Part shown: piece after piece, positions 8,030 to 24,764 of the stretch
Layout of the letters: each line of letters opens with the position of its first letter
How positions within the stretch are numbered: position 1 is the first letter of the stretch
Virus record (IMG/VR): IMGVR_UViG_3300035494_000155
Location: 1-40,508 of that record
Length of the DNA: 40,508 nucleotides
Origin: a virus
Lineage: Duplodnaviria > Caudoviricetes
Reading direction: 5' to 3' (one strand)
Notes under the pieces: model-generated
The model's database searches: none
What the model was told of the DNA's origin: nothing
What the model saw: the letters and a program-made list of their open reading frames with translations, nothing else
Translations under genes and position numbers: made by a program

Positions 8030-8092
8030 GGATTTTTGTAGATTATCTGGATTTTGGTAGATTATTTGGATTTTGGTAGATTATTTGGATTT
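8030..8092. repeat. 19-bp tandem repeat x3 (GGATTTTGGTAGATTATTT), flanked by TTTCGATTGCG x3
   Basis: Read directly; the 11-mer lies at 7995, 8090 and 8141. Confidence 0.9.
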
Positions 8093-8251
8093 CGATTGCG
8101 TAGCTTATGTGAGGGAATTTGTGATATTTGGTGAGGTCTATTTCGATTGCGTTGGTTTTAAAAATCTAGCAGAGTCTTGTTCCGGTTCGATGTACAAATT
8201 TACAAAGCAAGATTGTCGGTACCCCGTCAGCTATATTCTAGTATACACTAT

Positions 8252-8870: not shown

Positions 8871-8933
8871 AGTACTGTTCATTTAATAAATGACAAAAAC
8901 TTAAAACAAGCCAAAGGCTTAAGGAGACATATT

Positions 8934-9455
8934 ATGAAGAAGTTAACAAAAACAAAAGTTTGGGGAGAAATCCTTTCAATCATCACAGACACAGTTGAAG
9001 CAAACACAGAAGCTTTTAAAAAAGGTAAAGATGAAGCCTTCCTTGAGGCTTTAACCGATGCACTTGGAGCCAGCTTTAAACCGGCAGGAGGAGGCAAAAC
9101 TTCTACAAAGGTTTTAAGTGATGGTAGAGTATATTGTAACTATTTCGAAGAATACTTGGAGCCAAGTGAGTTTAAAATGAAGTCCTCCAAAAAACTTGAC
9201 GAAAATGGAAACCGTATCAAAACTTACAAGGCAAACTCAATCAGGGCCGAGGAAATCCTCAAAAAGCTTGCAACCCTCAAAGGTACAACTGAGAGCTTAG
9301 CTATGGAGTACTTGAGGGCTGGTAAGATTAATGAGGAGCAATTCAATGGCCTCCTTGACAGCCTTGATGAAGCTATGGAGACAACTTATGAAAGCCTCTC
9401 AGATGTCCCTGCAGTACCTACAATTTTCAAACAAGCAGGAGTTGAGCTTTCTTAA
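8934..9455 (+). CDS. Early hypothetical protein, paralogue of 16672..17106
   Basis: RBS GCTTAAGGAG; shares STKV..G.V.CNYF..Y and RAG.I..E motifs with 16672 product. Confidence 0.85.
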   Translation: MKKLTKTKVWGEILSIITDTVEANTEAFKKGKDEAFLEALTDALGASFKPAGGGKTSTKVLSDGRVYCNYFEEYLEPSEFKMKSSKKLDENGNRIKTYKANSIRAEEILKKLATLKGTTESLAMEYLRAGKINEEQFNGLLDSLDEAMETTYESLSDVPAVPTIFKQAGVELS

Positions 9456-9480
9456 AGCTCGGCTTCTCAGGAGGACTACC

Positions 9481-9573
9481 ATGGTTATGCTTAGAACTAT
9501 TATATCATCGGTTTACTTAGTTGGTATGCTGGCAGCAGCTGCCTTCGCTCACACACTATTAGGAGGATTATAA
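9481..9573 (+). CDS. 30-aa membrane peptide
   Basis: AGGAGG RBS; MVMLRTIISSVYLVGMLAAAAFAHTLLGGL; TAATG coupling to next gene. Confidence 0.65.
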   Translation: MVMLRTIISSVYLVGMLAAAAFAHTLLGGL

Positions 9574-9776
9574 TGAAAACTACATCAGAACTAAAAGACT
9601 ATATTAAAAAGCTTAAAGCAGCTTATGTTAACACAAATAAAGACCTAATGGAAGCTAACCTTATAATCGAAGGCCTTGTCGATGATATTGATGGACTCCA
9701 GCAGAGAATAGCTGCTCTTGAGGAAGAACTTGAAGCCTCCCGCATAAACCTTACAATACTTATTCAGCTCTACTGA
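9573..9776 (+). CDS. Small coiled-coil hypothetical protein
   Basis: AGGAGG RBS, heptad pattern. Confidence 0.75.
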   Translation: MKTTSELKDYIKKLKAAYVNTNKDLMEANLIIEGLVDDIDGLQQRIAALEEELEASRINLTILIQLY

Positions 9777-9949
9777 AAGTGGGCAGTAATCTGCTGCCTG
9801 CTGTAACTCATTTTAAGCCATATATTAGCCTCTTTTAATGTCTACCATTGTAATCCCTTAAACTACTGTAAATTTGCCCTAAAACTACGCTTAAATCTGC
9901 TTAAATCGACACGTTTTTGAACTATCTACTTGGAATTTTAGTATTTATA

Positions 9950-10140
9950 ATATTTTAGTAAAAATAATCTACAAAATCTATCAAAATCTATAAATCTAAT
10001 AATCCAGATAAAAAAAAAAATGAAAGTAAAAATTTGATGAAATACAAAAAAGTGGATTTGGCCGATTTTGCCTGATTTTTAGAGTTTTTTTGGATTTTGG
10101 TGGATTTTGTTCAAACATAAATTTCAAAATTTCACCATAA
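9950..10140. other. Putative replication origin: opposed AATCTA / GATTT repeat arrays around an A-rich core
   Basis: AATC(T/C)A x5 at 9966-10006, A11 at 10010-10020, GATTT x5 at 10055-10107; just upstream of the primase operon. Confidence 0.45.
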
Positions 10141-10201
10141 TTTTATTGACTTTTAAACAAAAACTAAAAGCCAAAACCACAAAACAAAAGAATTTTTCAA
10201 A

Positions 10202-10234
10202 TTAATATAAAATTTATAATTAATTGGATACAAT
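10202..10234 (+). promoter_or_regulatory. Promoter for primase operon
   Basis: TTAATATAAA...TACAAT with the same 27-nt offset. Confidence 0.5.
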
Positions 10235-10258
10235 ACAAAAGCAATAAAAGGAGACCAA

Positions 10259-10690
10259 ATGAAATTAACAAAATACGAACAGCAGGCCCTAAAACCCCTA
10301 CTCAGGACCCTTTACAACGGCCCACTAAACAAAACCCAACTATCAAAAAAATTTTTTCATGCCACGCACCTAGTCCAGCTGAACGACACCGGCCAGCCCG
10401 AGGACCTCCATTATACCGACCCAGAACTATTAGCTAGCTTAGCCATAGCTCAGACCACGCTGGAGTCGATGGACGAAGAAGAACTCATTAGCTATATATC
10501 ATCAGCCAGAAACAAACTGGAAAACAGCCCCCGAACTACCCATATGGCAAACTATCTACCTGAAATAGCTATTTTAGCCTTAGTTAAGTCGGGGATACGC
10601 ATGGGAAGACATCCTAAGGCTGCCTTATATTACCAAGACATTTCGCTCATAGGTGAGCCTACTCAAGCCATCATGGCAGCACTAGCTTAA
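10259..10690 (+). CDS. Hypothetical protein
   Basis: AAGGAG RBS, 143 aa. Confidence 0.8.
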   Translation: MKLTKYEQQALKPLLRTLYNGPLNKTQLSKKFFHATHLVQLNDTGQPEDLHYTDPELLASLAIAQTTLESMDEEELISYISSARNKLENSPRTTHMANYLPEIAILALVKSGIRMGRHPKAALYYQDISLIGEPTQAIMAALA

Positions 10691-10698
10691 GGATTATC

Positions 10699-13074
10699 AT
10701 GGCAAAATATACCAAAATATTTAAAACTATTCCCCTTAAAGGCAAAAGGCTTATAAGGGATGCACAGACACTAAAGAAGCTGGTGGTTATGGCAGACGGT
10801 TCACTCGTATCCGTGGGAGATGTAGTTAAGCAGGCTGGGTGGGATACATCAGAGGTCGAGGCAGATATTCTACTAGCCGATACAGGCAAGAGTGGTATCA
10901 TAGCAATAGATTTTGACGGGCCTGACGGAGAGCACTACTTTCACCATGCCTTATCACTAGATCCCGACTGTAAGTATGTGGCTAGGGGAATAGGTAAGGG
11001 AGGGGGACATCTCATATATAAAGCGGGAAATACAGAGATGCTCGATAAAATTATATCCTCTGACAACGGGTGTAATATTACCTCTATGGACTTGCAACGC
11101 GGTAGAAAGCTGATATTTCTTGCTACTCCTGCTAATGAGACCAAGGAGCTTCTTACGGAGCCGCTACAGAGCTATGATGAGCTTACATATATGCCCGAGA
11201 TTATTCAGCTGTATATTTCAACTATCTACTTACAGCAGGCAGTGGCTACTTCAGAGCCTCACTCGGCAGCTAATGACAGCACACACCGTGACTCTAAGCT
11301 ATATTACATAGTTAAGGACGCCATCGACAATCCCGATAGATATAACCATAGGTTCTTTAATATCGTCACTACGAAGGAATATAAGGATATTCTGAGCAAG
11401 AACCAGAAGCACCTGGATTATCCACTGATACCCGACAATCTTCCTATGGAGGCTTCTGCCCAGATGTATCTTACTAGTATTGCTACTATCTTGGGAAGAG
11501 ACCCTTCTATAGATGCTGATAGCTTCTCTCGGGCGTTGCACTACGTCAATAGCCTCTTCTCGAGCCCGAAGCCAGACTCAGAGGTTAATAGCATAATTAA
11601 GTATATCACTTCGGGAAATAGCAAGATAAACGGGGAGCCTGTATGGCAGTATAACCCTGAGTGGTCGAAGACAGGGCTGGTGTATATAGACCATGATGGA
11701 AGCTCCCACGAGGTGTTTATGTATACTGACAGAGGACAGAACTTTTATCTAGACCATAACCATATAACTAATGATATAGAGACTTATAACTCTGCAGGGG
11801 CTTTGGTAGATAACATAAAAGCTGTATCTAAGGCTGCTATAAATAAGGAGAAGGTGCTCAATAGGGTGCTTAAGGTAAAGATAGTTAATGACCCTATAAG
11901 AAGCTTTGGGATACACCGAAACGAGTACGGCAGTGAGTTCAATATTTACCGCTGGTCGGAAGAACAGGAAATACTTCGTAACCCTGAGCTTCACAAAAAT
12001 AATTATAACTACCCAGAAACTACTCTCAGGTTTCTAGAAAATAGCATGGGCAGGGATAAGCTATACGACTTCTTTCTTCCGTTTATTAAGAGAAAGTTTA
12101 CAACTTATGACTTTAGTCCACTGGTACTGGTATTATACGGGCCTCCCCACTCTGGGAAATCTGCAATACCTGAGGGAATACTCGCACCTCTGACAAACGG
12201 AAGGTATATTAACCTCGGGGCTGAGGTGGCTACTGAGAAGTACAATGACTGGATGCTTAATAAGGACATAGTGTTTATGGATGAGATACATCATAACCGA
12301 CACGACGTGCTGGAAAAGCTCATAAATGTCATAAACCGTTCTCCTAAAAAGCTTACAGGTATACGTGCTATGAACGTATCGGCAAGCTCAGTGGCTTATG
12401 ATAACCGCATAACATATATAGCAGCTTGTAACTCAGTTACACCCCTAGCCACTGAGTCTGGAGATAGACGCCTCGTGATATTAAGAAGTAGGTTACCTGT
12501 GTCGAAGGCATTGGGACTGCCTAATAATGTTATAGAGAAGAACATAGTTAGGGAGGCAAAAGACTTTGCATACTTTCTGGCTACTGAGGTAAAGCCACTT
12601 GAGCACGCATTATATATCCATAATGGTTGGCTAAAAGATGCAGACTATAAGGAATATATGCAAGGTTCCCTTGACTTTAACAAGGCTTTAACAACTGCAA
12701 TAGTTAATGAAGACTGGGTTAACTTTGAGAATACTCTATTAGATAAGCATATTAGTCTAGATGATATTAATAGGTCTACTCATTGGAATAAAGACAAGGG
12801 AGAGATACAAGTGAGGCTGATAAATTCTTCTGAGTCTGAGGCTCACTACCCTGCTCTACTTAACGTTGGTAATGTGGACATGAAGAAGCTAATGAAAGAG
12901 CTAAGGGAGTGCCATAGCCCCAATATAATGATACGTAGGGATGATAGAAAGGATGGTGTTAAAGCTTCTAATAAAAAGACAGTGGCTGTTTTTAGATGGG
13001 ATGACTTGACTGAAGAGTTTAAGGCCCTCTTAGAAAGTGATACAGCTTCTATAGCGCCTATAATGGAGGATTAG
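10699..13074 (+). CDS. Bifunctional primase-polymerase fused to SF3-type helicase
   Basis: IAIDFDG (DxD) and GGGHLIY PrimPol motifs; Walker A GPPHSGKS, Walker B VFMDE, GDRR arginine finger. Confidence 0.9.
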   Translation: MAKYTKIFKTIPLKGKRLIRDAQTLKKLVVMADGSLVSVGDVVKQAGWDTSEVEADILLADTGKSGIIAIDFDGPDGEHYFHHALSLDPDCKYVARGIGKGGGHLIYKAGNTEMLDKIISSDNGCNITSMDLQRGRKLIFLATPANETKELLTEPLQSYDELTYMPEIIQLYISTIYLQQAVATSEPHSAANDSTHRDSKLYYIVKDAIDNPDRYNHRFFNIVTTKEYKDILSKNQKHLDYPLIPDNLPMEASAQMYLTSIATILGRDPSIDADSFSRALHYVNSLFSSPKPDSEVNSIIKYITSGNSKINGEPVWQYNPEWSKTGLVYIDHDGSSHEVFMYTDRGQNFYLDHNHITNDIETYNSAGALVDNIKAVSKAAINKEKVLNRVLKVKIVNDPIRSFGIHRNEYGSEFNIYRWSEEQEILRNPELHKNNYNYPETTLRFLENSMGRDKLYDFFLPFIKRKFTTYDFSPLVLVLYGPPHSGKSAIPEGILAPLTNGRYINLGAEVATEKYNDWMLNKDIVFMDEIHHNRHDVLEKLINVINRSPKKLTGIRAMNVSASSVAYDNRITYIAACNSVTPLATESGDRRLVILRSRLPVSKALGLPNNVIEKNIVREAKDFAYFLATEVKPLEHALYIHNGWLKDADYKEYMQGSLDFNKALTTAIVNEDWVNFENTLLDKHISLDDINRSTHWNKDKGEIQVRLINSSESEAHYPALLNVGNVDMKKLMKELRECHSPNIMIRRDDRKDGVKASNKKTVAVFRWDDLTEEFKALLESDTASIAPIMED

Positions 13075-13086
13075 GCTTTTTAAATT

Positions 13087-13119
13087 TTAATAAAATTTTT
13101 ATTTAACTTCTGATATAAT
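13087..13119 (+). promoter_or_regulatory. Extended -10 promoter
   Basis: TTAATAAAATTTTTATTT...TGaTATAAT. Confidence 0.75.
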
Positions 13120-13153
13120 ATTACTATAACAAATAAATGCTTAAGGAGCAAAA

Positions 13154-13651
13154 ATGAATATTTTCGTACTAGACAAAGACCCTTTTATGGCGGCACAAGC
13201 CCACTATGATAAACACGTAGTGAAGATGCTACTTGAGTCTGCACAGATGCTATGCACAGTTGCTAACAGCCTCGGCTTTAAGACACCTTATAAGCCTACT
13301 CACAGAAACCATCCATGCACCAAGTGGGTGGGAGAAAGCAAACAAAACTTTGATTGGTTACTTGACCTAGCTATATTTTTAAATGCAGAATGGAAATTGA
13401 GATATAATCACCCTAAAGACAAAAACCATAAGTCTATGCAGGTTTTATTCTATGGGTTTGGCTGGGATAAGGTTAGGAAAAAGCTACCTGATATTGGGCT
13501 TACTCCTTTTGCACAGGCCATGCCAGAGGAGTTTCAAGGACCTGATGCAGTTGAAGCCTATCGTAAGTATTACATGAAAGACAAAGCTCACTTAAAAGCT
13601 TACACTAACAGAGAAGAACCTGAATGGATGAAGGAGCAAACAAATGTTTAA
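13154..13651 (+). CDS. Pyrimidine-dimer DNA glycosylase / DenV-family-like protein
   Basis: MNIFVLD..DKHVVKMLLESAQML, HPCTKW, PFAQAMP, AVEAYRKYY motifs. Confidence 0.8.
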   Translation: MNIFVLDKDPFMAAQAHYDKHVVKMLLESAQMLCTVANSLGFKTPYKPTHRNHPCTKWVGESKQNFDWLLDLAIFLNAEWKLRYNHPKDKNHKSMQVLFYGFGWDKVRKKLPDIGLTPFAQAMPEEFQGPDAVEAYRKYYMKDKAHLKAYTNREEPEWMKEQTNV

Positions 13652-13835
13652 AGTACCTGATACTCTTGTAGAGAAAGAGTTTGAAGCTATGGTAGCTAAA
13701 ATTGAAGGGCTTGGATTTAAAGTTACTTATAATGAAGATGACTTATGGGAAGAGGCTCTTATCAAAGCCACTGACAGATACGTAGATATGTGCGAGATGA
13801 AAATTGAAGAAGCCAAAATGGAGAAGGTGAAATGA
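13644..13835 (+). CDS. Hypothetical protein
   Basis: AAGGAG RBS, overlaps both neighbours. Confidence 0.75.
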   Translation: MFKVPDTLVEKEFEAMVAKIEGLGFKVTYNEDDLWEEALIKATDRYVDMCEMKIEEAKMEKVK

Positions 13836-14050
13836 ATAAGTTAGATACGCTATTAAAGGCCATTAACCTAGCCCACTATGACAATCTCAAAACAGTTGAG
13901 GTAAGCCTCGAAGATTTAGTCCTGCTTAGAAGTACTATACTTGAGCTTCAAGACCAAGCCAAGAGATTAAAAGAAGTTGAGCAAACTACTAGAATTAAAC
14001 TTGCTCTAGAACAACTAGATAAGCCAGTGAAGCTATCTATTTATGCTTAA
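13832..14050 (+). CDS. Hypothetical protein
   Basis: ATGA coupling to upstream gene. Confidence 0.75.
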   Translation: MNKLDTLLKAINLAHYDNLKTVEVSLEDLVLLRSTILELQDQAKRLKEVEQTTRIKLALEQLDKPVKLSIYA

Positions 14051-14061
14051 GGAGATATAAG

Positions 14062-14385
14062 ATGAAAGAATTACCAAAAGAACTAACTACTGAATTGATG
14101 AATTTAGTAATAGGCGAAACGACAAAAGGTGATTTTGAAATATCAAACAATAAACTATACAGCAGGGGTAGTTATGTTGAAAATCTAGACACTCTAACTA
14201 GATTAATGAAGGAATGGTGTTTCAATGAGGGGCTTATGTTTGATATTAGATGGCATACAAATCGTAACCCTAAGCGGATTTCCGCTATGACTTACGGAAA
14301 AGGTAGTACCTTTTTTACTGGTAATACTGAGTTTGAAACTGTATTAAGTATGACCTCATGGCTAGCTAAAGATAAAGGAGAATAA
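14062..14385 (+). CDS. Hypothetical protein
   Basis: TGCTTAAGGAG RBS, 107 aa. Confidence 0.8.
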   Translation: MKELPKELTTELMNLVIGETTKGDFEISNNKLYSRGSYVENLDTLTRLMKEWCFNEGLMFDIRWHTNRNPKRISAMTYGKGSTFFTGNTEFETVLSMTSWLAKDKGE

Positions 14386-14548
14386 GATGAGTCAAGAATT
14401 TAAAGTATGGGATGAGTAAATGAAGCATGAGCTAAACAACTTAAGAGAGTTGAAGAGAAAGATAAAGAGATGGTGGAGATTTTAGATGCGTGTCAATGGA
14501 TTTTAGAAATGACTAACGTATGCTATACGAACAATTAAAGGAGAGAAA
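14386..14548 (+). pseudogene. Remnants of deleted small genes
   Basis: RBS + MSQEFKVWDE* (YopX-like start), then out-of-frame fragments (..EILDACQWILEM..; ..YEQLKERK*). Confidence 0.35.
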
Positions 14549-15103
14549 ATGAAAGTTAAGTTACTACATACAAACGGATTAGAGTTTAGCGATAGTGCTA
14601 TTGGATTATGCTACGACAAAGGTTGTTATACTGATGAAGAGAAGCGTGATAATAGAATTAAGAAAGTTGCTTTAAAGCATAAACACAGCTCAACTATTGA
14701 GTTTACCAACTTCATCTTTGAGATTGAAGCAAGCACAAAAGTTCTATTAGAGATGACCAGACACAGAATTGCTAACTATGCCTGCAAGTCCAGTAGATAT
14801 ACTCTAAATAAAGGTGAGATAGTATTTGAGGAAACGGGAAATAGCGTTATAGATGGTTTATTAGAAGACTGGAGAAGGAATATTGAAGCTTGTGTAAAAG
14901 CAGGATACTCTAATGAGCATACAAGCTTAATGCTACCACAAGCCTATCAGTATAGATGGCAAGTACAATTCAACGCTAGGAGTCTTATGAACTTCCTAGA
15001 ACTAAGAAGAGCTCCATCTGCCCATTATCATATTAGAGAGGTTGCAGAAGCTATGTATAGCTGTGTCCCAGATGATATGAAATATTTATTTAACGAAGAG
15101 TAA
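14549..15103 (+). CDS. thyX: FAD-dependent thymidylate synthase
   Basis: HSSTIEF, RHR-x7-S motif (RHRIANYACKSSRY), NARSLMNFLELR..AHYHIR. Confidence 0.95.
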   Translation: MKVKLLHTNGLEFSDSAIGLCYDKGCYTDEEKRDNRIKKVALKHKHSSTIEFTNFIFEIEASTKVLLEMTRHRIANYACKSSRYTLNKGEIVFEETGNSVIDGLLEDWRRNIEACVKAGYSNEHTSLMLPQAYQYRWQVQFNARSLMNFLELRRAPSAHYHIREVAEAMYSCVPDDMKYLFNEE

Positions 15104-15106
15104 GTT

Positions 15107-15190
15107 ATGGGATGCTTATTTCCATTCTTAATTGCTTTATTAGCGGTATTCATAAGCCCTTGGTTCTTACTAGGATTTATATTTTGCTAA
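15107..15190 (+). CDS. 27-aa hydrophobic peptide
   Basis: MGCLFPFLIALLAVFISPWFLLGFIFC fills the gap between thyX and the helicase. Confidence 0.5.
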   Translation: MGCLFPFLIALLAVFISPWFLLGFIFC

Positions 15191-15199
15191 GGAGAGAAA

Positions 15200-16537
15200 A
15201 TGATAAAAGATTTTCTTGCTCAAAACGATGAGCTAGAGGCTTTCTTAACAGGGCCTGCAGGCTCTGGAAAAACTACCCAGCTAATCGAATATGTTGAAGA
15301 ACTAAACAAACTTAACGTGATTTATAAGGTAGTTGCTTATACCCATAAGGCAAAGGGCGTACTTCAAGAAAAGCTTCCAGAAGGTACTGACATTGCCACT
15401 TTACATAGCTGGCTTAAGAAAAGACCAGGTATAAATGAGAAAGCCAAGCACTTAAAAGCATTACTGACTACCGCCCAGAGAGGTAAGCCAGAAATGATTG
15501 AGCTACTAATAGTTGATGAGTTTTCTTTCATAGGAGAGAAAGACTATTTTAGCATAGGGGAGCTACAAGACCTTCTAAATCTAACCCATAGCTTTTGTAC
15601 AGTCTGTAATAGTTCTGATATTACTGATGATGGGCTGACTTGTATTAGCTGCATGGAAGCTGATGGTACTTCAGGCAATATAGAAGAATTTACACTAAAT
15701 CCATTGAAGGTACTATATGTAGGAGATTTAAATCAGCTTCCTCCTATTGATGGTCCTTCTGCGGTAGAACCTCACGGACCTTTCTGGACAAAGCTTACAA
15801 AGATACATAGGACTGCTTCTCCAGGGCTAATGAGACCATTACAAAAACTAGTAGACATTATAGAAGGAGGCATTCCCATGTCTTATCTAGAACCTACTAA
15901 TGATTTTATTAGAGGAGTAGATATAGATAAAGCCTATGCAAATGACAGTAAGTCTAAGATAATGTTAGCTTTTACAAATAAGGCAGTGGAGGACCATAAC
16001 TCGGCTATACAAGGAAGAAAAGAACCTGAGGTAGGAGATTGGGTTTATATACCTACCTTTGCCAAATCTGGGTTTGATAAAATGCAAATAAAAGCCGTTT
16101 ATAGCCAGTATAATGGCAGTATAAACACAGTCAATGGTATTATAAATGAAGCTACAAAATTTAATCCCGTGGGCTTTTTAAATGGCTTAAATTATATAAA
16201 ATTTTATCATTTTACTAATGGAATGACAGTGGCTGGAATTTTTGGGAGCTATCAAAATAAACTAATTAGAGATAGATTGGGAAGACAGTTGGTAGAAGCT
16301 AATAAGCAAGGGAAAAACTCCAAGGCATATTATAGAGAGTATAAGACTATTTCTGATTTCGTAGTTACTATGGATTTTACCCACTGTATGACTATTCATA
16401 AATCACAGGGCTCAGAATACGAAAACGTATACGTGGATAGTAAAGATTTAGGAAAGTGCCTTAGTTCTAGTGATAGAGTAAAGCTACTTTATGTTGCGAT
16501 ATCTCGTGCTAGGTCCCAAGTGTTTTTAAATAATTGA
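15200..16537 (+). CDS. Dda/RecD-like SF1B DNA helicase
   Basis: GPAGSGKT, VDEFS, GDLNQLPP, TIHKSQGSEY, YVAISRAR. Confidence 0.92.
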   Translation: MIKDFLAQNDELEAFLTGPAGSGKTTQLIEYVEELNKLNVIYKVVAYTHKAKGVLQEKLPEGTDIATLHSWLKKRPGINEKAKHLKALLTTAQRGKPEMIELLIVDEFSFIGEKDYFSIGELQDLLNLTHSFCTVCNSSDITDDGLTCISCMEADGTSGNIEEFTLNPLKVLYVGDLNQLPPIDGPSAVEPHGPFWTKLTKIHRTASPGLMRPLQKLVDIIEGGIPMSYLEPTNDFIRGVDIDKAYANDSKSKIMLAFTNKAVEDHNSAIQGRKEPEVGDWVYIPTFAKSGFDKMQIKAVYSQYNGSINTVNGIINEATKFNPVGFLNGLNYIKFYHFTNGMTVAGIFGSYQNKLIRDRLGRQLVEANKQGKNSKAYYREYKTISDFVVTMDFTHCMTIHKSQGSEYENVYVDSKDLGKCLSSSDRVKLLYVAISRARSQVFLNN

Positions 16538-16562
16538 AGTGATATTAAGTAGATATTAAAAT

Positions 16563-16595
16563 TTAATAAACTTTTAATATTGCTTCTTGTATAAT
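16563..16595 (+). promoter_or_regulatory. Promoter
   Basis: TTAATAAACTTTT...TATAAT, 27-nt offset. Confidence 0.7.
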
Positions 16596-16671
16596 TGTAC
16601 TATCAAATTTAAAACATTGTTTTAAATTTATAAATTCAACTCGGGTACGGATTACCCAAAAAGGATATAAA

Positions 16672-17106
16672 ATGGCAAAGGTTTCTTTAAAAGAAAGAAA
16701 AGAAAAATTAGGTTTGATTTTGGCAGGTTTTGTTGAAGCAGGAGTACTTACTGAGGCTCAATCAGCAGAAATCTCTGGCGTTTTCGGTTCTCAAGCCGTT
16801 TCTACAAAAGTAAATGAGGAAGGTCTTGTTTTTTGTAACTACTTCGGTAAGTATATGCCGGCAGAAGCTTTCCACACTTCTACAAAAGGTAAAATTGACT
16901 CTATGTCTATCGAAGGTAAGAAGTTGCACCGTACTCAAAAATCTATGGTAAACAAAGCAAACAACGAAGTGCTCAAACAATACCGTGCTGGAGAAATTAC
17001 TGCAGAAGAGATGGATACTTTACTTAAAGCTATCGAGAAAAATGCAGGCCATAAGTTCCCAGAAGGTACTGCTGCGATCAATGCCGATTATCCTTTCGAG
17101 GTATAA
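16672..17106 (+). CDS. Hypothetical protein, paralogue of 8934..9455
   Basis: AAGGA RBS; STKVNEEGLVFCNYFGKY, YRAGEITAEEM. Confidence 0.85.
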   Translation: MAKVSLKERKEKLGLILAGFVEAGVLTEAQSAEISGVFGSQAVSTKVNEEGLVFCNYFGKYMPAEAFHTSTKGKIDSMSIEGKKLHRTQKSMVNKANNEVLKQYRAGEITAEEMDTLLKAIEKNAGHKFPEGTAAINADYPFEV

Positions 17107-17112
17107 TCTAAT

Positions 17113-17139
17113 CTAGGCTTCGGCCTAGTAGATTTATTT
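17113..17139 (+). terminator. UUCG-capped hairpin, putative intrinsic terminator
   Basis: CTAGGC-TTCG-GCCTAG followed by TAGATTTATTT. Confidence 0.55.
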
Positions 17140-17212
17140 GAGGTCCTTGGTTAGTTCGCCTCCTTAAGCAACCAACTTCATTCCTGACCAAGGACCTCTA
17201 ATAAGTCTACTA
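17126..17212 (+). ncRNA. Long RNA hairpin (29-bp stem) with anti-Shine-Dalgarno loop; putative sRNA or RNase III site
   Basis: 17126-17154 pairs with 17184-17212 (26 Watson-Crick, 2 G-U, 1 mismatch); loop contains CTCCTTAAGCA. Confidence 0.6.
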
Positions 17213-17263
17213 AATATTCTTTATTAGACTGACCAAAACATTTCTAACACATGGAGAACACAG

Positions 17264-17920
17264 ATGGCAAAAGGTACTAAAGTTAAAACGAAAAAAGGAA
17301 ACCTAAAATGGGTTTTCATTAAAGGTGAGGGACGTAACCAAGCTCGCCCTAATCAACCTGAAAAGATGATGTTCGTAGCATCTCTTGTTGTACCCAAAGA
17401 TGGTGCGGTTCACAAAGACATTAAACGTCAGATTGACGAAGAGTGGGCTGCTTACAAAGCTCAGCATGGTGTAAAGGGTTTACCAGCTTCTAATGGTATT
17501 AAAGATGAGATGATACAAGACCCTAAAGGTGAGATTGACCCAACTACAGAGGAAGTTAAAAAAGTTCCAACTGGTAACGTAATTATCACGTTTAAAACTA
17601 AAACAACTTGGCCTGACGGGAAGCCTCACGAAATTAAGGTATTTGATGGAACTGGTAAAGATATTACCAAAGCCGTTCATGCAGCTCCTTGGTCTATTGG
17701 TGAAGGCTCAACCGGTGTTTTACACGGTGTAGCTGCTGGTAATGATACTGGGGGAAACCACAAGGTGACTTTATACCTTTCTGCTGTTCAGCTTGCAAAA
17801 TTAGTTAAGTATGAAGGTACTGCTATTGATGCTGATGTTCTTGATGACGCAGAAGATATAGATTTAGGTGATGCTGTTGCTGCTATCGATGAGGCAGAGT
17901 CTGCTACACCCGATCTGTAA
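17264..17920 (+). CDS. ssb: Single-stranded DNA-binding protein (T7 gp2.5-like)
   Basis: IGEGSTG..VTLYLSAVQLAKLVKYEG, acidic C-terminal tail, upstream of polymerase. Confidence 0.85.
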   Translation: MAKGTKVKTKKGNLKWVFIKGEGRNQARPNQPEKMMFVASLVVPKDGAVHKDIKRQIDEEWAAYKAQHGVKGLPASNGIKDEMIQDPKGEIDPTTEEVKKVPTGNVIITFKTKTTWPDGKPHEIKVFDGTGKDITKAVHAAPWSIGEGSTGVLHGVAAGNDTGGNHKVTLYLSAVQLAKLVKYEGTAIDADVLDDAEDIDLGDAVAAIDEAESATPDL

Positions 17921-17922
17921 TT

Positions 17923-17950
17923 AGGGAGGCTTTGGCCTCTCTTTTTATTT
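17923..17950 (+). terminator. Intrinsic terminator
   Basis: GGGAGGC-TTTG-GCCTCTC followed by TTTTTATTT. Confidence 0.8.
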
Positions 17951-17982
17951 ATCTACTAAATCTATTGCGTAGGAGCAAACAA

Positions 17983-19863
17983 ATGTTACCATTTCAATAT
18001 AAATACGTCTCTTCTATAGACCAACTTCCTAACTTCTCCCCAGATTATCCGGTATTTGCAGATATTGAGTCTGATGGGCTTTATATTAATACTAGAGTTA
18101 TTCAGTACTATCAGCCAGAAACTGACCCTTATGTTTACATTCTGGATGTAGGGTACTTCGGAGAACACACTAAGAATGCTTCCACCACTAATGCACTCTT
18201 CAAAGCATTGGGAAAATCGCATGTAGCTAAGGTAACCAGAAAACAGATAGAAGAGCTGCATAAACCCCTATGGTTAGTTTGGTGGAATGGGTCTTATGAC
18301 CAAGGAACTTTAAGAGTAGGCTCTAAGAAAGTAGATGACTTATGGTATATGGCTAAGATAGCATTACCAAAATTATCAGAATTTAACCTTGACGTAGTCA
18401 CTAATCACCTATTCCCTAAACAAAACTTCTATGGGGATATAAACAAAAAACAAATGCACAAGGCTAACTGGGCAGCCGCAGTACTTGATGAGCTACAGCT
18501 AAAGTATGCTGCTACTGATGTATACGTTATGAAGCTTATCTGGGACAAAATATACCCTAAGGTTAAGGATAACAGGGCATACCAAGTAGATAGCTTAAAC
18601 CTTGGGTATGCAGTCAGATGGCAGCAAAATGGTCTTAAGGTTAAAGAGTCTGTAAGAAAAGCCACAGAATTAGAGTACCAAACAAAACTAGCTGAGGTAA
18701 AAACCAAGTTTCCCGTTGAGCTAAATGTAAATAGCTTTCAACAGGTACGGGCTTTATTGGCAGCTTATGATTTAGGATGGGATGTTTCTACTCCTGAAAA
18801 GTGGAAGTTAGCCTTAGAAAAACACAAAGAGAATCCGGTTGTAAAAGAATCAGATGAAACAGCCTTATTAACCAGAGCTGCTAAAGGATGTCCATACTCA
18901 GAGCTTATCCTAGAAGAAAGAGGAATTATAAAAACCTTAGGTTTCTTGGAAGGTTACAACAGAGACAGAGTATATTCTCATTATAATCCTTACGGAGCTA
19001 GAACAGGCAGATGGGTCTCTAAAGGAGGAGATAGGGAAGAAGCTGCAAACCTACAACAGCTACCTCGTAAACTTAAAAAAGTATTTGGTTTTGAGGAAGA
19101 AGATGATAGAGTATTCGTTGGAGCTGACTTACCAACGGCTGAGCTAAGGCTTATTGCTGCTGTGTATGGAGAGCATACAATGGCGGAGTGCTTTAGAAAT
19201 GATATAGATATTCACTATCGTACTGCATCTAATACCTTAGGTAAGCCTATAGACCAAGTTACTTCTGATGAACGTAAAAAGGCCAAAGCTGAAAACTTTG
19301 GATTATGTTATGGCATGGGGGCTGATAAATTCCAGGCTTATGCCTTTACTAACTATGACATCATTATGACCATAGAGGAAGCAGAAGCAAGGAGAAACTC
19401 ATGGATGGCCGCTTACCCTGACCAAGCCCGATTCTTAGATAAAATTAAAAAGGACTTCTTTAAAGGGGACCTTGTAGTTAAGACTTTGCTAAATAGATGG
19501 GTAAAGCCTGATATGTATACCGATGCAAGTAATATACCTATTCAAGGAGGGATTGCAGAAGTTGCTAAAATATGGATACACTATCTTCATGTATTAGCTA
19601 AGGAGGAATATGGAATACGTAAGTTACCAATCATAGTGGATAATAACAACATAGTATACAACATGCCAGTAGCTAACTTTGTGCATGATAGCTTAACACT
19701 TGAAGCTCAAAATAAAGCAGAAGCTGATGATTGGAAAGACCTGTTATACCGAAGTTGTGATAAGGCCTGGGATTACTATATGAGTTTACCAGGGATCCTT
19801 ATTAGAGATATACCAATGCCTTTAGAAGTAGGAATTGGAAAAAGCTATGGCGATGCCAGCTAA
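17983..19863 (+). CDS. polA: Family A DNA polymerase with 3'-5' exonuclease
   Basis: ADIES ExoI, YAATD ExoIII, RTGR, NLQQLP, motif A DLPTAELR, motif B RKKAKAENFGLCYG, motif C VHDS; start moved to ATG 17983 behind AGGAG. Confidence 0.95.
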   Translation: MLPFQYKYVSSIDQLPNFSPDYPVFADIESDGLYINTRVIQYYQPETDPYVYILDVGYFGEHTKNASTTNALFKALGKSHVAKVTRKQIEELHKPLWLVWWNGSYDQGTLRVGSKKVDDLWYMAKIALPKLSEFNLDVVTNHLFPKQNFYGDINKKQMHKANWAAAVLDELQLKYAATDVYVMKLIWDKIYPKVKDNRAYQVDSLNLGYAVRWQQNGLKVKESVRKATELEYQTKLAEVKTKFPVELNVNSFQQVRALLAAYDLGWDVSTPEKWKLALEKHKENPVVKESDETALLTRAAKGCPYSELILEERGIIKTLGFLEGYNRDRVYSHYNPYGARTGRWVSKGGDREEAANLQQLPRKLKKVFGFEEEDDRVFVGADLPTAELRLIAAVYGEHTMAECFRNDIDIHYRTASNTLGKPIDQVTSDERKKAKAENFGLCYGMGADKFQAYAFTNYDIIMTIEEAEARRNSWMAAYPDQARFLDKIKKDFFKGDLVVKTLLNRWVKPDMYTDASNIPIQGGIAEVAKIWIHYLHVLAKEEYGIRKLPIIVDNNNIVYNMPVANFVHDSLTLEAQNKAEADDWKDLLYRSCDKAWDYYMSLPGILIRDIPMPLEVGIGKSYGDAS

Positions 19864-20809
19864 AGGAAAATACATGGAAAGTTTAGACCTAGTAATAGAA
19901 GAAGATGAGATATTTATAGAGATAGATGCGGCTGGTAACTATACTCCTGAAAAGCATGATAAAGCTATTATCATAGATGCAGATACCATAGCTTTTGCTG
20001 CTTGTTCTGTATGTCAGTACGAAGCCGTTGATATCTCACCTGATAGAGAACATGCCGTATATGATGAGTCACTTGGGTGCTTTAGGGACATTAACATCGA
20101 TGAGGCTGTACTTCATGCCAAAGGTAAGGTTGAGCTCATCCTAGAAAGGATAGGAGGTAAAAAGAAAAATACTGAGCTACATTTTACTATGAGTAGAGAT
20201 AACTTTCGTAATCAGCTACTTAAGGAAGCTTTTCCTAATAATCCCGAGCTATGGTACAAAGCCCATAGAAGTGACAGAGAAAAGAAACCACCGGTTGGGT
20301 TAAGTGCTTGTAAAGAACAATTAGCTATCCACTTTAAAAGCTTTTACTGGCTAAATATAGAGGCCGATGATGCAGTGGTAGAAAGAAAGTATGCGCTTAA
20401 AGACAATGCTATTCTGGTATGTGTAGATAAGGACATCTATAAAAATACACCTGACTTCGGACAGCCCCACTGGAATTATTATGAAGCCCCTTGGCTGGCT
20501 AATCCAATAGCTATGAAGTGGATACCCATGGATGAAGAGGAAGCCTTGTATAACCTATATATGCAGGCTATTATCGGAGACCGGTCTGATAATGTTCCAG
20601 GACTTCCTGGTATAGGGCCTAAAAAAGCTGCAGCATTCCTAGAGCTTGGAATGAGTGAAGAAGAACTATGGGAAGGCGTAAAGGCGGCTTATAATAAACA
20701 CTGCAAGTATGGAGACCCAGAACAGATGGCTATTCTAAACATGAGACTAGTTAACATGAACCAAACTACTGATGGGGAGGTATCTTTATGGCAACCAATG
20801 GAAAGCTAG
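19835..20809 (+). CDS. 5'-3' exonuclease (T7 gp6 / FEN-like); start uncertain
   Basis: IIDAD, WYKA.R, EADD, DKD, GDRSDNVPGLPGIGPKKA. Confidence 0.92.
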   Translation: MEKAMAMPAKGKYMESLDLVIEEDEIFIEIDAAGNYTPEKHDKAIIIDADTIAFAACSVCQYEAVDISPDREHAVYDESLGCFRDINIDEAVLHAKGKVELILERIGGKKKNTELHFTMSRDNFRNQLLKEAFPNNPELWYKAHRSDREKKPPVGLSACKEQLAIHFKSFYWLNIEADDAVVERKYALKDNAILVCVDKDIYKNTPDFGQPHWNYYEAPWLANPIAMKWIPMDEEEALYNLYMQAIIGDRSDNVPGLPGIGPKKAAAFLELGMSEEELWEGVKAAYNKHCKYGDPEQMAILNMRLVNMNQTTDGEVSLWQPMES

Positions 20810-21123
20810 AATGGCCTACTAAGGAGCAGGTAGAAGAACAGATACTAGTACATGGAGTATCTTATACATCTAGTTTCTGGAAAACACTGCAGATACAAGA
20901 AAAGCTTGTTTTAACTGTAGAACAGGCTGAGATATACCACATAGTTCAAAAGGCTCATGTAGAGCTAACAGGACATAGTTTACCAGATACTATCAAAGGT
21001 TCTATGAAAACTCGGGCTCAAATTAGAAATGAGATCGGGGAAGTGGACGAAACTAAAATAGAAAATGCAGTACAGTCTGGAATGATGGCTAAGCTAGCAA
21101 AATTAAGAGGAGAAAACAAATGA
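20788..21123 (+). CDS. Hypothetical protein
   Basis: GGAGG RBS, overlap-coupled. Confidence 0.75.
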   Translation: MATNGKLEWPTKEQVEEQILVHGVSYTSSFWKTLQIQEKLVLTVEQAEIYHIVQKAHVELTGHSLPDTIKGSMKTRAQIRNEIGEVDETKIENAVQSGMMAKLAKLRGENK

Positions 21124-21470
21124 GTATGGGAAATAATGAAGGAACAGTAGCTGATACTTTAAAACAAAGAGGGTTAGTATACGGTAGCTATAAAGAGGTA
21201 TGTGAAGTTAGGGCTAAAATCTTAGATTTACTTAGCAAACATCACGTAGCTGTTACCGGTAAGCCAATGGATGATAGAACTCTTTTAGGTTTTAGTGACG
21301 TGGTGCTAAAGCTTGTAAGAGCTGCAGGGAAGCCTGAGTATGAAGACAGTTGGCATGATTTGGCGGGGTATGCTACTTTAATGGAAGATATAGCTAAATC
21401 TGGCAAGACTCTTAAAGATGCCTTGGCTATTAGTGACTTAAGCAAAGCATTTGAGGGAGGTACTAAATGA
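21120..21470 (+). CDS. DUF6378-like small helical protein (possibly nucleotide-related)
   Basis: L.QRG..YG.Y, KLVR, DSWHDLAGYATL motifs. Confidence 0.7.
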   Translation: MSMGNNEGTVADTLKQRGLVYGSYKEVCEVRAKILDLLSKHHVAVTGKPMDDRTLLGFSDVVLKLVRAAGKPEYEDSWHDLAGYATLMEDIAKSGKTLKDALAISDLSKAFEGGTK

Positions 21471-22186
21471 AAAATATAGTTAAGAAACTAAGAGATAGAC
21501 TGGTAGATACTGGGTATGTAATTAGTACTTCTAGCTGGCAAGGAACTAAAACTCCTCCAGCTATGGTAGAAATACCTCATGTATCTGAAGTGGTAAAAAT
21601 GCTTGAAGACCCTAAAGAGTTATCTGATGCTGTTAATGCTAAGCAGCCGTGGGCTAATATACACTTCAAAGAAAGAACTCAAGGGTATGCAACTAACCCT
21701 GACCCCTCACATGAGATGTGGGCTAGTAGTACCCATGACTATAAATTGGATGATACTAAATTTAGCCATACTTACTCTGAGAGAATGTGGCCTTCAGCTC
21801 TTTTACCAAAAGGTATTAGATTTAAAACTGGGGACCTATATACCCTGGTACAGCTATTGCAAAAAGAGCCGGATACAAGACAAGCATACATGCCTATGTA
21901 TTTACACGAAGACTTAACTGCTGCTTTAGAAGGTGAGAGGGTTCCTTGTTCTTTGGGATGGCACTTTATTATACGTAACGGTACTTTAGATGTTATGTAT
22001 ACGATGAGAAGCTGTGATGCTATGAGACACCTACAAAATGATATCTATTTTGCTAACAAGTTAGCCCTATGGGTAAGAGAACAAGCAGGGCTAGAAGTAA
22101 AGATGGGTGTCCTACACTTGGTTATTACAAGCTTACACTGCTTTCAGCAAGACATTGCAATTTATAAAAAAGGATTAATCAAATGA
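21467..22186 (+). CDS. ThyA-fold dCMP hydroxymethylase/methylase-like enzyme
   Basis: TRQA, catalytic PC (C161), MRSCD-x7-D (D192, dCMP-type), SLH. Confidence 0.8.
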   Translation: MKNIVKKLRDRLVDTGYVISTSSWQGTKTPPAMVEIPHVSEVVKMLEDPKELSDAVNAKQPWANIHFKERTQGYATNPDPSHEMWASSTHDYKLDDTKFSHTYSERMWPSALLPKGIRFKTGDLYTLVQLLQKEPDTRQAYMPMYLHEDLTAALEGERVPCSLGWHFIIRNGTLDVMYTMRSCDAMRHLQNDIYFANKLALWVREQAGLEVKMGVLHLVITSLHCFQQDIAIYKKGLIK

Positions 22187-23187
22187 GAGTATTAGGAATA
22201 GAAGGAAACATAGGTAGTATGCTTTATCCTTTTCAAGAAGCAGGGCATGAGGTGGTAGGAAACTATGACTCAAGAGGTATAGTCAATGAGAAAAATTTTA
22301 AATTAAATTTCCCCTCTTCTGTATTATTCAAATCTCTAAAAGAAGTGGAGGAGTTAACTGATATCGATGTTGTCGTTGCTCAGCCTAGCTGTAGCAAATT
22401 TTCCCAGCTATCTAGAAGAGACAAAGACGACTACTCATTTGACGTATGCGTGGACCTTGCTTATTATCTTGAGAAGCTAAAGCCCAAATTCTTTTTTATA
22501 GAGTCTAAGCTAGACTATATCTATGAGGTACCTAAAGTGCCAGGCTATAGCTATCAGCTGGAATGGGTTAGTAACTATTATTACGGGAATACTCAGAAAG
22601 GTAGAAATAGGCTGTGGGTTATGGGGATAAGAGAAGATATGGACTGGGTCTTTGTCCCTAGAGAAGAAGAACACAAAAATACGGTGGAGAGTGTAATAGC
22701 TGACCTACCAGCTAAGGATGATAAAGACTTAGACCACTTACACGTATATAAGCCTTTCTTAAAGAATAGCATTACACAAGAGTACTTAACCCTAGATGAG
22801 GCCTTTGAAATGCTGCAAAAAGAAGGAAGACTAAGTTACATAGCTTCTGACGGAAAGATTAAGCATCGTATTAATCGTAAGCTAGCTAAGCGAACCTCAT
22901 CTACTACTATAACAGGCGGAGGAACATGGTTTCACTGGAGTAAGAAATATCCGCTAACCGTTAGGGAAAAGGCCAGAATACAAGGGTTCCCAGATAGCTT
23001 TAGTTTTAAGGGCCTCTCCGCTTCCAAAAAAGATAAAGCCGTGGGTAAAAGCATGCCTATGGAGTTCACAAGATATCTGGTTGGGCTATTGGATGGGTCA
23101 ATTAAGCCTAAACAACCAAGAAAAATAGTGGCGGACCCACTAAAGCTGGTAATTTTTAAGCAAAAATCACAATTTAAAATAAAATAG
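22183..23187 (+). CDS. Divergent C5-cytosine DNA methyltransferase-like enzyme
   Basis: Motif IV QPSCSKFS, VI FIES, VIII QKGRNR, IX LTVREKARIQGFPD, X AVGKSMP; degenerate motif I GIEGNIGS. Confidence 0.88.
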   Translation: MRVLGIEGNIGSMLYPFQEAGHEVVGNYDSRGIVNEKNFKLNFPSSVLFKSLKEVEELTDIDVVVAQPSCSKFSQLSRRDKDDYSFDVCVDLAYYLEKLKPKFFFIESKLDYIYEVPKVPGYSYQLEWVSNYYYGNTQKGRNRLWVMGIREDMDWVFVPREEEHKNTVESVIADLPAKDDKDLDHLHVYKPFLKNSITQEYLTLDEAFEMLQKEGRLSYIASDGKIKHRINRKLAKRTSSTTITGGGTWFHWSKKYPLTVREKARIQGFPDSFSFKGLSASKKDKAVGKSMPMEFTRYLVGLLDGSIKPKQPRKIVADPLKLVIFKQKSQFKIK

Positions 23188-23195
23188 GAGGCTAA

Positions 23196-23277
23196 TTTTA
23201 GCAAAATAAAAATTAGCTAATATAATTATATGATAAAGCATAAAAACTCCATATAATGTAAATTTACTGCCTTATAT
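23196..23277 (+). repeat. 82-bp dispersed element, copy B; TATAAT at 23221, overlaps hairpin 23256-23307
   Basis: Matches the reverse complement of 8712-8793. Confidence 0.85.
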
Positions 23278-23336
23278 GCAATTTCTCATATAATGGCAAA
23301 TTTACATGACCAAAGGTACTAAAATTTTGTTTTATT

Positions 23337-23369
23337 TTAATAAAATTTTTATTTTTATTTTGTTATAAT
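23337..23369 (+). promoter_or_regulatory. Extended -10 promoter
   Basis: TTAATAAAATTTTTATTT...TGtTATAAT; first 18 nt identical to 13087. Confidence 0.75.
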
Positions 23370-23396
23370 GCTTCTAAATAAATACAAAGGAAACAG

Positions 23397-23672
23397 ATGA
23401 ACCAAATTATCGAGGTAGAAGATGTTAGGGAAGCTGCTATGGAGGCCCTAAAGAATGATAGCAGCCTAACTAAATACAAACTGGCTAAAACCTTAAATTT
23501 ATCAACGGCCTCCCACATAAACAACTTCCTTACAGGGAATACTAAGAAGACTAGATTAGCAGTTAAGAAGCTATTCTTTACTCGACTTAATATCCTAATT
23601 AAGGATTTCAAAGATACGCCAGAATATAAAAGACTTACAGAAAAACCAACATCAGAGGATATAAAAGTATGA
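23397..23672 (+). CDS. XRE-like HTH DNA-binding protein
   Basis: LTKYKLAKTLNLSTASHINNFLTG helix-turn-helix pattern. Confidence 0.7.
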   Translation: MNQIIEVEDVREAAMEALKNDSSLTKYKLAKTLNLSTASHINNFLTGNTKKTRLAVKKLFFTRLNILIKDFKDTPEYKRLTEKPTSEDIKV

Positions 23673-24232
23673 CAGAATTAACAAGATTAAGAGACCTAAC
23701 ATTGAAATGGTCTAGCGACCGAGGTATTATCACTAATGGTAAGACTATTACTCAAGCCCTAAAGCTTAGTAGTGAAATGGGAGAATTAGCAGGTAATGTA
23801 TTAAGGCATAAAGATTTTAGAGATGACATAGGAGACTGCTTAGTTGTACTAACTAATATGTATGCATTAGAAGGTTCTGATATCTTAAATAGTTGGGAAG
23901 ACCTAGTTGTTCCTTTCTTTAATTACCCATTAGAGTTTATAGCGGCTTTAGCTGAAGCTAAGGGCAACCTAGATGATAACCTAGCTAAGCAAAAGCCTAT
24001 ACTAGAAAACATGGGTACCATTATAGGAATACTTAAAGGGATAAGCTACTACCATGAGCTTACTATCATTGAGTGCTGGGAAAAAGCCTATAATGATATT
24101 AAAGACCGTAAAGGGTTCTTGAATGAGCACGGAAACTTTATTAAAGAGTCTGACCCTTCATATGAGCTACTATATAAGAAGTTTTTATCTTCTAAGGCTA
24201 GCCTATTTGATACAGAGGCTGACAATGCTTAA
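23669..24232 (+). CDS. MazG-like nucleotide pyrophosphohydrolase
   Basis: QALKLSSEMGELA..DDIGDCLVVL, degenerate second repeat, ECWEKAYNDIKDRKG..GNFIKE. Confidence 0.85.
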   Translation: MTELTRLRDLTLKWSSDRGIITNGKTITQALKLSSEMGELAGNVLRHKDFRDDIGDCLVVLTNMYALEGSDILNSWEDLVVPFFNYPLEFIAALAEAKGNLDDNLAKQKPILENMGTIIGILKGISYYHELTIIECWEKAYNDIKDRKGFLNEHGNFIKESDPSYELLYKKFLSSKASLFDTEADNA

Positions 24233-24764
24233 GCACGTTATGATGGATATAGAAACTTTATCTACTTCCAGTAATGCCATAGTTACTACCATTAGCGCTG
24301 TGGAATTCGACTTAATAACGGGTGAGATGGGTAAAGAGTTTGAGGTTGCACTAGACACTAAGGAACAGCTGGACAGAGGAGGGGTTCTGGATGCCTCTAC
24401 AGTAGTTTGGTGGCTTAATCAGGAAGAAGAGGCTATTTTATCTATGTTAAAGGTGCCAAAGAAAAGCCTTAACAGTGCCTTGTTATCGTTCAATGATTGG
24501 TTAAATGGCTTGGAGTGTCCTAACAAAGATTTGAAGCTATGGGGTAACGGTGTAGGGTTTGATAACGTTATAGTTAGAAACCTATACAGAAATTCAGGAA
24601 TAGAGTTTGTGCTTCCTTACTGGTGTGATAATGACGTTAGAACTCTGGTAACACTAGGAAACATAGATACTAGGAACTTCAAATTTGAAGGGATTAAGCA
24701 CTATGGAATAGATGACTGCAAACACCAGATTAAATACTGCCATGCTGCTTATAAAGGTATGTAA
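24225..24764 (+). CDS. DEDD 3'-5' exonuclease (Rv2179c / ExoVIII-N-like)
   Basis: HVMMDIETL, TVVWW, WGNGVGFDN, DVRT, H..IDDC; start at ATG 24225 behind GAGG. Confidence 0.88.
   Translation: MLKHVMMDIETLSTSSNAIVTTISAVEFDLITGEMGKEFEVALDTKEQLDRGGVLDASTVVWWLNQEEEAILSMLKVPKKSLNSALLSFNDWLNGLECPNKDLKLWGNGVGFDNVIVRNLYRNSGIEFVLPYWCDNDVRTLVTLGNIDTRNFKFEGIKHYGIDDCKHQIKYCHAAYKGM

Follow-up and report, generated by a model that had tools for sequence, protein, structure and literature searches.

The window, meaning the whole stretch of DNA analysed here, is a 40.5-kb virus record (40,508 nt; 97% complete) with two divergent arms (Table 1). Among its 51 ORFs no integrase, repressor or phage RNA polymerase was found, and the phage is probably lytic. 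The closest named phages by SSB (single-stranded DNA-binding protein) and polymerase are Edwardsiella KF-1, Vibrio VPMS1, Pseudoalteromonas PH1 and Nitratiruptor NrS-1, with identities of at most about 35%. We infer a Campylobacterota host, since Campylobacter phages make up most of the ThyX matches (54 of 76 records; identity about 34%), NrS-1 gives the best SSB bit score, and the promoters of the window combine TATAAT with an AT-rich tract upstream. SSB relatives were absent from the 185,579 prokaryote genomes searched, and the single short ThyX contig, found in a MAG belonging to an unrelated phylum, was discarded as host evidence. The window encodes both ThyX (14549-15103) and a ThyA-like thymidylate synthase (21467-22186), as well as a C-5 cytosine methyltransferase (22183-23187) and MazG. 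Tandem repeats of 19 nt and 17 nt (8031-8101 and 8212-8496) are found in the non-coding stretch from which the late and early arms diverge, a possible origin or genome-end region, and repeats of 111 nt (252-648) lie inside a minus-strand tail or appendage gene. "Early" is used here by position, for genes between the strand switch and the gene of a 144-aa phage protein.

This 144-aa gene ends just before a long hairpin, which is followed by a Gp2.5-like SSB gene. The predicted model of the 144-aa protein is confident (pLDDT 89.7); a Foldseek search with it returned no match at E 0.001, and its Atlas matches are unnamed viral clusters. It may be a degenerate zinc-ribbon nucleic-acid-binding protein. 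The first gene of the early region (8934-9455) encodes its paralogue (27% identity, E 2e-10), and this two-copy arrangement was seen in 11 genomes, including the window. The leader of the 144-165-aa gene is conserved (window 16640-16671; L002, L009, L011, L013, L015-L020, L022) and consists of AAA(T/C)TCG, a 4-5-bp hairpin that changes on both sides, and ACTTAAAGGA. The small hairpin is present in 12 of 15 leaders, and the whole element is a candidate autoregulatory translational operator. In relatives, an H-type pseudoknot-like element also lies 27-51 nt 5' of the SSB start, with changes that preserve pairing; these elements are individually weak (p<0.05 in 5 of 27 leaders), and none was found before the SSB gene in the window. 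They recall the T4 gene 32 operator.

Table 1. Features of the locus, the predicted loop targets and related elements (window coordinates unless a locus is named).
Feature	Position	Strand	Remarks
Plus arm	8934-28097	+	primase/polymerase, ThyX, Dda-like helicase, Gp2.5-like SSB, DNA polymerase, exonucleases, ligase
Minus arm		-	terminase, capsid, portal, ejection, lysis genes
RBS GCTTAAGGAG of first early-region gene (8934-9455)	8917..8926	+	net pairing -11.2 kcal/mol
RBS GCTTAAGGA of primase/polymerase-helicase gene (10699-13074)	10685..10693	+	net pairing -9.3 kcal/mol
RBS TGCTTAAGGAG of gene 13154-13651	13138..13148	+	net pairing -11.9 kcal/mol
RBS TGCTTAAGGAG of gene 14062-14385	14044..14054	+	net pairing -12.9 kcal/mol
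Candidate promoter of 144-aa gene-hairpin-SSB transcript	16556..16613	+	TATAAT at 16590, AT-rich upstream tract
144-aa phage protein gene, 3' end just before hairpin	16672..17106	+	41 homologues
TATAAT	17102..17107	+	last codon and stop of 144-aa gene
Small CUUCGG hairpin	17113..17128	+	overlaps base of long stem by 3 nt
5' arm of long stem	17126..17154	+	AGAUUUA box at 17130-17136; base 11 pairs covary
Open loop, 29 nt	17155..17183	+	unpaired probability about 0.9 across CUCCUUAA
Anti-SD seed CUCCUUAAGCA	17160..17170	+	only reverse copy of the motif in the window; opening cost 0.5 kcal/mol
3' arm of long stem	17184..17212	+	UAAGUCU box at 17202-17208
Gp2.5-like SSB gene, downstream of hairpin	17264..17920	+	PHROG 112, E 6e-16
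Pseudoknot-like element before SSB, relatives	L003:488-508, L013:1510-1530, L014:9927-9949, L015:7167-7187, L016:8218-8239, L021:9073-9094, L011:5982-6004, L012:299-322		

The hairpin stem is the sole long local inverted repeat of the window. The initial annotation had described it as a 29-bp stem; it is indeed long, with 28 pairs of which two are G-U, and measures 28 rather than 29 bp because of a U-U mismatch at 17139/17199. The plus strand folds with an MFE of -46.3 kcal/mol (z -7.5), which was matched by 0 of 200 shuffles, and the minus strand folds too (z -6.1). The 29-nt loop is open and carries CUCCUUAAGCA, as originally noted. The Rfam search that had been suggested gave no family at gathering score, either in window 16500-17500, where only sub-threshold miRNA-like matches and a weak DUF2815 match (E 3.7) appeared, or at six relatives' loci. 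The DUF2815 match sits inside the SSB coding start, and a literature search on this RNA found no paper. A minus-strand gene using the loop motif as its RBS was rejected, with no consistent reading frame among 12 loops. RNase III sites need about two helical turns of duplex, and the cut leaves a 2-nt 3' overhang; the stem, at 28 bp, is long enough for this.

Two signals around the 5' arm had been pointed out before. The UUCG terminator-like hairpin is present and passes a terminator scan, its tail being the 5' arm of the long stem, but such sites are no commoner in the genome than in shuffles (10 vs 10.7). A small hairpin recurs at the same place in relatives, often with CUUCGG, and may act as a weak terminator or as a 5' protective hairpin. 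The TATAAT at 17102 is also there, and was rejected as the hairpin's promoter: it forms the last codon and the stop of the upstream gene, lacks an AT-rich upstream tract, is kept only in the two closest relatives (G001 and G002), and is likely a codon by-product. The candidate promoter at 16590 belongs to a repeat family, D4, together with the sites at 13114 and 23364 (16556-16613, 13080-13137 and 23330-23387).

In order to follow the hairpin across the clade, 31 related loci (32 with the window) were gathered via the 144-aa protein, its 152-165-aa homologues and the SSB; they include some close kin (G010-G012, G028/G029, L078/G024). Excluded were L001/G020 (32% SSB, no 144-aa gene), L010 (a paralogue without SSB), L008 and L009 (which repeat the element of L002 and L003), and L110-L116 (ThyX matches, two of them with only a distant SSB). 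Nearly all loci show a stop codon, the hairpin region and then the SSB gene, while three have another gene in place of the SSB. A helix of at least 15 bp is present at 24 of 32 loci, compared with 63 of 171 control intergenic regions, and a paired YUUA/UAAG box at 19 of 32 compared with 15 of 171. An open UCCU is found at 10 of 32 loci and in 1 of 171 control regions, by slightly different measures. Many loci have loops of 3-8 nt, and about two thirds are without an open anti-SD. Several hairpins occur at this locus in G015, G016, G025 and G028, and at L016:8144-8186 the loop holds a small hairpin like a tRNA T-arm (GGGUUCAACUCCC) and no anti-SD.

For the loop tests, 17 loops were defined by hand with two stem bases kept on each side; G006, G008 and G014, which have no long loop, were left outside these tests and count only among the 32 loci. 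TCCT occurs in 11 of the 17 loops and in 2 of their 17 reverse complements, with 0.64 expected, and the loop flanks are unrelated (P 1e-12; 2e-10 without the window and with three kin merged). Across the 17 hairpins, G-U outnumbers A-C on the plus strand by 45 to 3, which agrees with the earlier remark that the G-U pairs favour a plus-strand structure and is compatible with either RNA or single-stranded DNA of the plus strand. Between relatives, the stems have largely unrelated sequences. Covariation was nevertheless found at the foot of the stem, where 11 bp are 87% paired in ten aligned hairpins and 5 of the 11 pairs have changed on both sides; this exceeds all slid controls, with the structure drawn from the window's sequence, which favours the result.

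From these counts of helices, box, open UCCU and TCCT, the clade-wide stem kept in position is the core of the family, and the recurrence of the anti-SD loop is real, in about a third of its members. The hairpin is a real, undescribed family of phage RNA structures, in some members of which the anti-SD loop probably has a function, and for the window a plus-strand nucleic-acid structure conserved in position is supported.

The motif GCTTAAGGA has 5 copies on both strands of the window, compared with 0.92 expected (order-4 Markov). All four sense copies are the RBSs of genes 8934, 10699, 13154 and 14062, and the sole reverse copy is the loop. This genome-wide count, which had been proposed as a check, bears out the matches listed by the initial annotation: 11 nt at genes 13154 and 14062 (TGCTTAAGGAG), 10 nt at 8934 (GCTTAAGGAG) and 9 nt at the primase (GCTTAAGGA). 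The four copies lie 5-7 nt before ATG, and none is at a structural gene. Gene 13154-13651 belongs to PHROG 624, and its pyrimidine-dimer glycosylase match is weak and below the cut-off. Loop matches of at least 9 nt occur at 4 of 10 early-region genes and at 0 of 38 others (hypergeometric p 0.001), and the best match at any late gene is 8 nt, in line with the by-eye impression that downstream and late genes lack the extended RBS. GCT precedes TAAGGA in 4 of 10 such RBSs of the window and in 3 of 105 in 19 relatives (binomial p 1e-4). The predicted loop-RBS duplexes are only 9-11 bp long, a point against selective pairing, with energies of -17 to -18 kcal/mol. By duplex energy alone the four genes rank 1-4 of 46, and by net pairing including opening costs they rank 1-4 of 48 (-12.9 to -9.3; next -8.2 kcal/mol). 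It also weighs against a dedicated match that AAGGAG is in any case richer in the early genes of the clade (33% vs 18% and 12%), and that CTTAA ahead of the SD is common in leaders of the 144-aa gene family.

Similar matches were found in two relatives. In G001, both sense copies of AGTTAAGGAG are RBSs (12-nt match each), belonging to a ribonucleotide-reductase-like middle gene and to a late gene, and the sole reverse copy is the loop; three early genes match this loop over 9 nt, and its flanks differ from those of the window. G019 has three sense copies of AGGAGGTGC, each called as an RBS (matches of 13, 11 and 10 nt), and the sole reverse copy is again the loop, with the caveat that ORF calls are uncertain there and the upstream gene is outside the 144-aa family. 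About 17 short hairpins are packed over the three ORFs that bear these RBSs (G019:C1:10900-13400). The null was drawn from real RBS contexts with the same core in other genomes; against it, p is 0.016 for the window, 0.008 for G001, 0.008 for G019 and 0.058 for G015, and seven other phages are not significant (Fisher 0.013 over 11; 0.055 without the window). A loop-by-genome permutation gave p 0.067 (0.21 without the window), and six further genomes have no loop-RBS match above 6 nt. No conserved orthologous target was found in 18 tests (lowest p 0.063). The suggested co-evolution of loop and RBS is therefore seen in part, as an own-RBS excess with different barcodes in the window, G001 and G019; the other 8 of 11 anti-SD loops have no such excess and no orthologue is shared. 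From the own-RBS, permutation and orthologue tests, a barcode is supported in three lineages, each with a different one, and is clearly early-specific only in the window.

A natural variant comes from run X1 (wastewater), whose strain is about 90-95% identical to the window; X1 and a second run, X2, consist of contigs, probably of DNA. Six changes are listed in the loop of the X1 hairpin and none in its stem; two further differences, close to the ends of the contig, are not in this list. The loop keeps the CCUCCUU core, and three changes within the 11-mer convert A-U pairs with the RBS to G-U, so the bare duplex energies barely move. However, four of the loop changes create an inner stem, and CCUU alone stays open; the predicted opening cost is then 10.6 kcal/mol and the net pairing only -1.8. 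X2 shares variants with X1 elsewhere and keeps GCTTAAGGAG before gene 8934; it does not span the hairpin. Of the points against an essential barcode switch, the closed loop predicted for X1 is the strongest. The objection is softened because the hairpin contig closes on itself at 2x the flanking depth and may exist in addition to a copy that was not seen. This contig is 127 nt long with a 97-nt unit (window 17118-17213; about 2x flanking depth), and may represent a tandem hairpin copy, or a circular or concatemeric molecule.

We tentatively propose, as a possibility not far short of probable, that in the phage of the window a small RNA with an open anti-SD loop pairs with four early-region RBSs and damps their translation. 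The RNA would arise by read-through from the 16590 promoter past the weak UUCG hairpin, and an RNase III-like double-strand nuclease or an exonuclease would trim it to the stem, giving a stable hairpin of about 90 nt. The CUCCUU core would nucleate at any AAGGAG, and the next 3-5 bases, here GCUUAAGGA(G), would select among them. Pairing would act in trans on target mRNAs, and the accumulating RNA would brake the paralogue gene 8934, the primase and two more genes. Since 16590 and 13114 belong to one repeat family, the hairpin and two of these targets probably share one promoter class, and the proposed action would be that of a delayed feedback brake with a lineage-specific target set, rather than of a programmed early-to-late switch.

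The initial annotation had read the hairpin as a candidate translational switch, a stable small RNA, perhaps excised by RNase III, that silences a barcoded set of early mRNAs and possibly host mRNAs. What is supported is the conserved place of the structure, the recurrence of the anti-SD loop and the loop matches to own RBSs in G001 and G019. A conserved early set was not supported: the two 12-nt matches in G001 are at a middle and a late gene, and the orthologue tests gave no shared target. Nor was a temporal switch supported, given the common repeat family of the likely promoter 16590 and of 13114 and the lack of a phage RNA polymerase in the 51 ORFs. The early-gene switch is plausible for the phage of the window, and its conservation is not borne out.

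A wider proposal, which we consider doubtful, is that the clade carries a re-programmable antisense module, with a fixed processed stem and a loop made of an anti-SD core plus a short lineage barcode copied into chosen RBSs. The module would address four early genes in the window and use other barcodes in G001 and G019, and strains would tune it by closing the loop or multiplying the unit.

It is rather unlikely, in our judgement, that the stem is a mere processing or stabilising site of RNase III type in the SSB-polymerase leader, with a free loop whose four-RBS match arose incidentally from the decay of an inner stem and the local copying of an RBS motif. T7-type RNase III sites are long intergenic stems with an irregularity in a phage replication operon, as is the window hairpin; to our knowledge none has a functional anti-SD loop. 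The clade keeps the stem (24 of 32) and the YUUA/UAAG box (19 of 32) even in short-loop forms, and several relatives have a bulge or internal loop beside the box. Moreover, the perfect inner stem of X1 uses the same bases, so that the GC of the seed would be fixed with no RBS involved; gene 8934 has a leader similar to the family leader of its paralogues; and other leader elements, such as the pseudoknot-like fold before the SSB gene, indicate a regulatory leader. A processing site leaves unexplained why TCCT recurs between unrelated flanks (11 of 17 loops; P 1e-12), the strand bias, and the independent matches in G001 and G019. The processing step itself is common to this explanation and to the proposed translational brake.

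We consider it improbable that the loop imitates the 3' tail of 16S rRNA in a generic way, damping any strong AAGGAG mRNA including those of the host, or serves as a decoy that captures an anti-SD-recognising protein or nuclease of the host, with an extended match that is incidental. Such a role would agree with the recurrence of the UCCU core alone, with the lack of a conserved phage target, with the X1 variant that leaves just CCUU open, and with the loops of G003 (CCUCCUUUCU) and G019 (CACCUCCU), which we take to resemble the 16S tail. However, the lineage-specific extensions occur at own RBSs only, in three lineages, and a generic blocker would also strike the phage's own middle and late AAGGAG genes.

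That the loop pairs in cis, with the SD of the SSB or DNA polymerase gene further down its own transcript, is very improbable: G003 has a 9-nt match between its loop and own SSB RBS, G015 an 11-nt match to its polymerase RBS, and the whole-loop test for the polymerase RBS gave p 0.019, but the SSB RBS test gave p 0.52, the seed-only tests p 0.56 (SSB) and 0.59 (polymerase), and the SSB site of the window pairs with the loop at just -6 to -8 kcal/mol. Equally hard to credit is an action as DNA, either as a single-stranded DNA hairpin or as a protein site with the palindromic core CTTAAG that is also present at the four RBSs; the wobble bias (G-T in DNA) is compatible with single-stranded DNA, the element adjoins the SSB gene and the stem box resembles half of CTTAAG, yet CTTAAG is not enriched (25 vs 22.3 expected), the reverse copy takes in the non-palindromic GGAG part, and UCCU is kept without the palindrome in most relatives' loops.

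Returning to the proposed antisense brake, the phage anatomy that comes closest is found in cluster K mycobacteriophages, in their start-associated sequences (SAS; Pope et al. 2011, PMC3203893). SAS is an extended SD repeat 3-7 bp before the starts of non-structural genes, with a single opposite-orientation copy away from gene starts and 17-bp inverted repeats upstream (ESAS; PMC3203893). As in SAS, the motif copies of the window lie 5-7 nt before non-structural starts, and there is one reverse copy in the window, G001 and G019. The sequences differ, with a 13-bp consensus GGGATAGGAGCCC in SAS and (T)GCTTAAGGA(G) in the window, and SAS has many more sites and belongs to temperate actinophages. 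The parts of PMC3203893 covered give the reverse SAS copy neither a position in a hairpin loop nor a role as regulator.

For the chemistry, the CJnc190 sRNA of Campylobacter jejuni would be a precedent by analogy, in an Hfq-less relative of the likely host. According to the parts of PMC8687705 covered, its C/U-rich loop represses translation by pairing with a G-rich RBS, it is matured by RNase III from an extended stem, compensatory mutations demonstrate the repression, and its host lacks Hfq and ProQ. The window likewise has a C/U-rich open loop computed to be complementary to G-rich RBSs, with similar predicted energies (-16.9 for CJnc190 vs -17 to -18 kcal/mol), and its 28-bp stem would be a plausible RNase III substrate. 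As described there, CJnc190 differs in being chromosomal, in having an antisense antagonist and in acting on a host target. The Alpha-r14 or cuckoo sRNAs of Alphaproteobacteria, e.g. NfeR1, are described in the sections consulted as three hairpins, each with an invariant CCUCCUCCC in its loop (PMC10746234). They share with the window an anti-SD in an unpaired loop on a stem of variable sequence, and are given there as Hfq-independent with multiple mRNA targets. In contrast, the window has one long phage-encoded hairpin with CCUCCUUAA and variable flanks; it does not belong to this group on the features described in that source, and alpha-r14 gave no gathering-score match in window 16500-17500 or at the six relatives' loci.

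Among phage systems, P1/P7 c4 RNA blocks the ant RBS according to a 2025 review of phage sRNAs, the covered part of which describes no RNA of a lytic phage that targets a shared RBS motif (PMC12197685). In the open-access literature searched, we found no trans-acting anti-SD RNA against a phage's own barcoded RBSs. The T4 RegB endoribonuclease, as presented in the excerpts of PMC3014915, inactivates early phage mRNAs via the SD by cutting GGAG within a longer consensus; it shares the proposed outcome, but RegB is a protein nuclease whereas an antisense RNA is proposed for the window.

Among the ways in which lytic phages without their own RNA polymerase shut down early genes, the RegB nuclease is the well-studied post-transcriptional case. 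The weight of the present proposal is lowered because the barcode is patchy in the clade. The locus is nevertheless a clean test case, in which four exact targets stand against 44 non-targets and a closed-loop variant exists in nature. If the proposed brake is true, it would give SAS-like repeats a testable function and provide a compact, chaperone-free repressor design. If true, the re-programmable module would do with RNA what T4 RegB does as a protein, and would account for SAS-type repeats in other phages.
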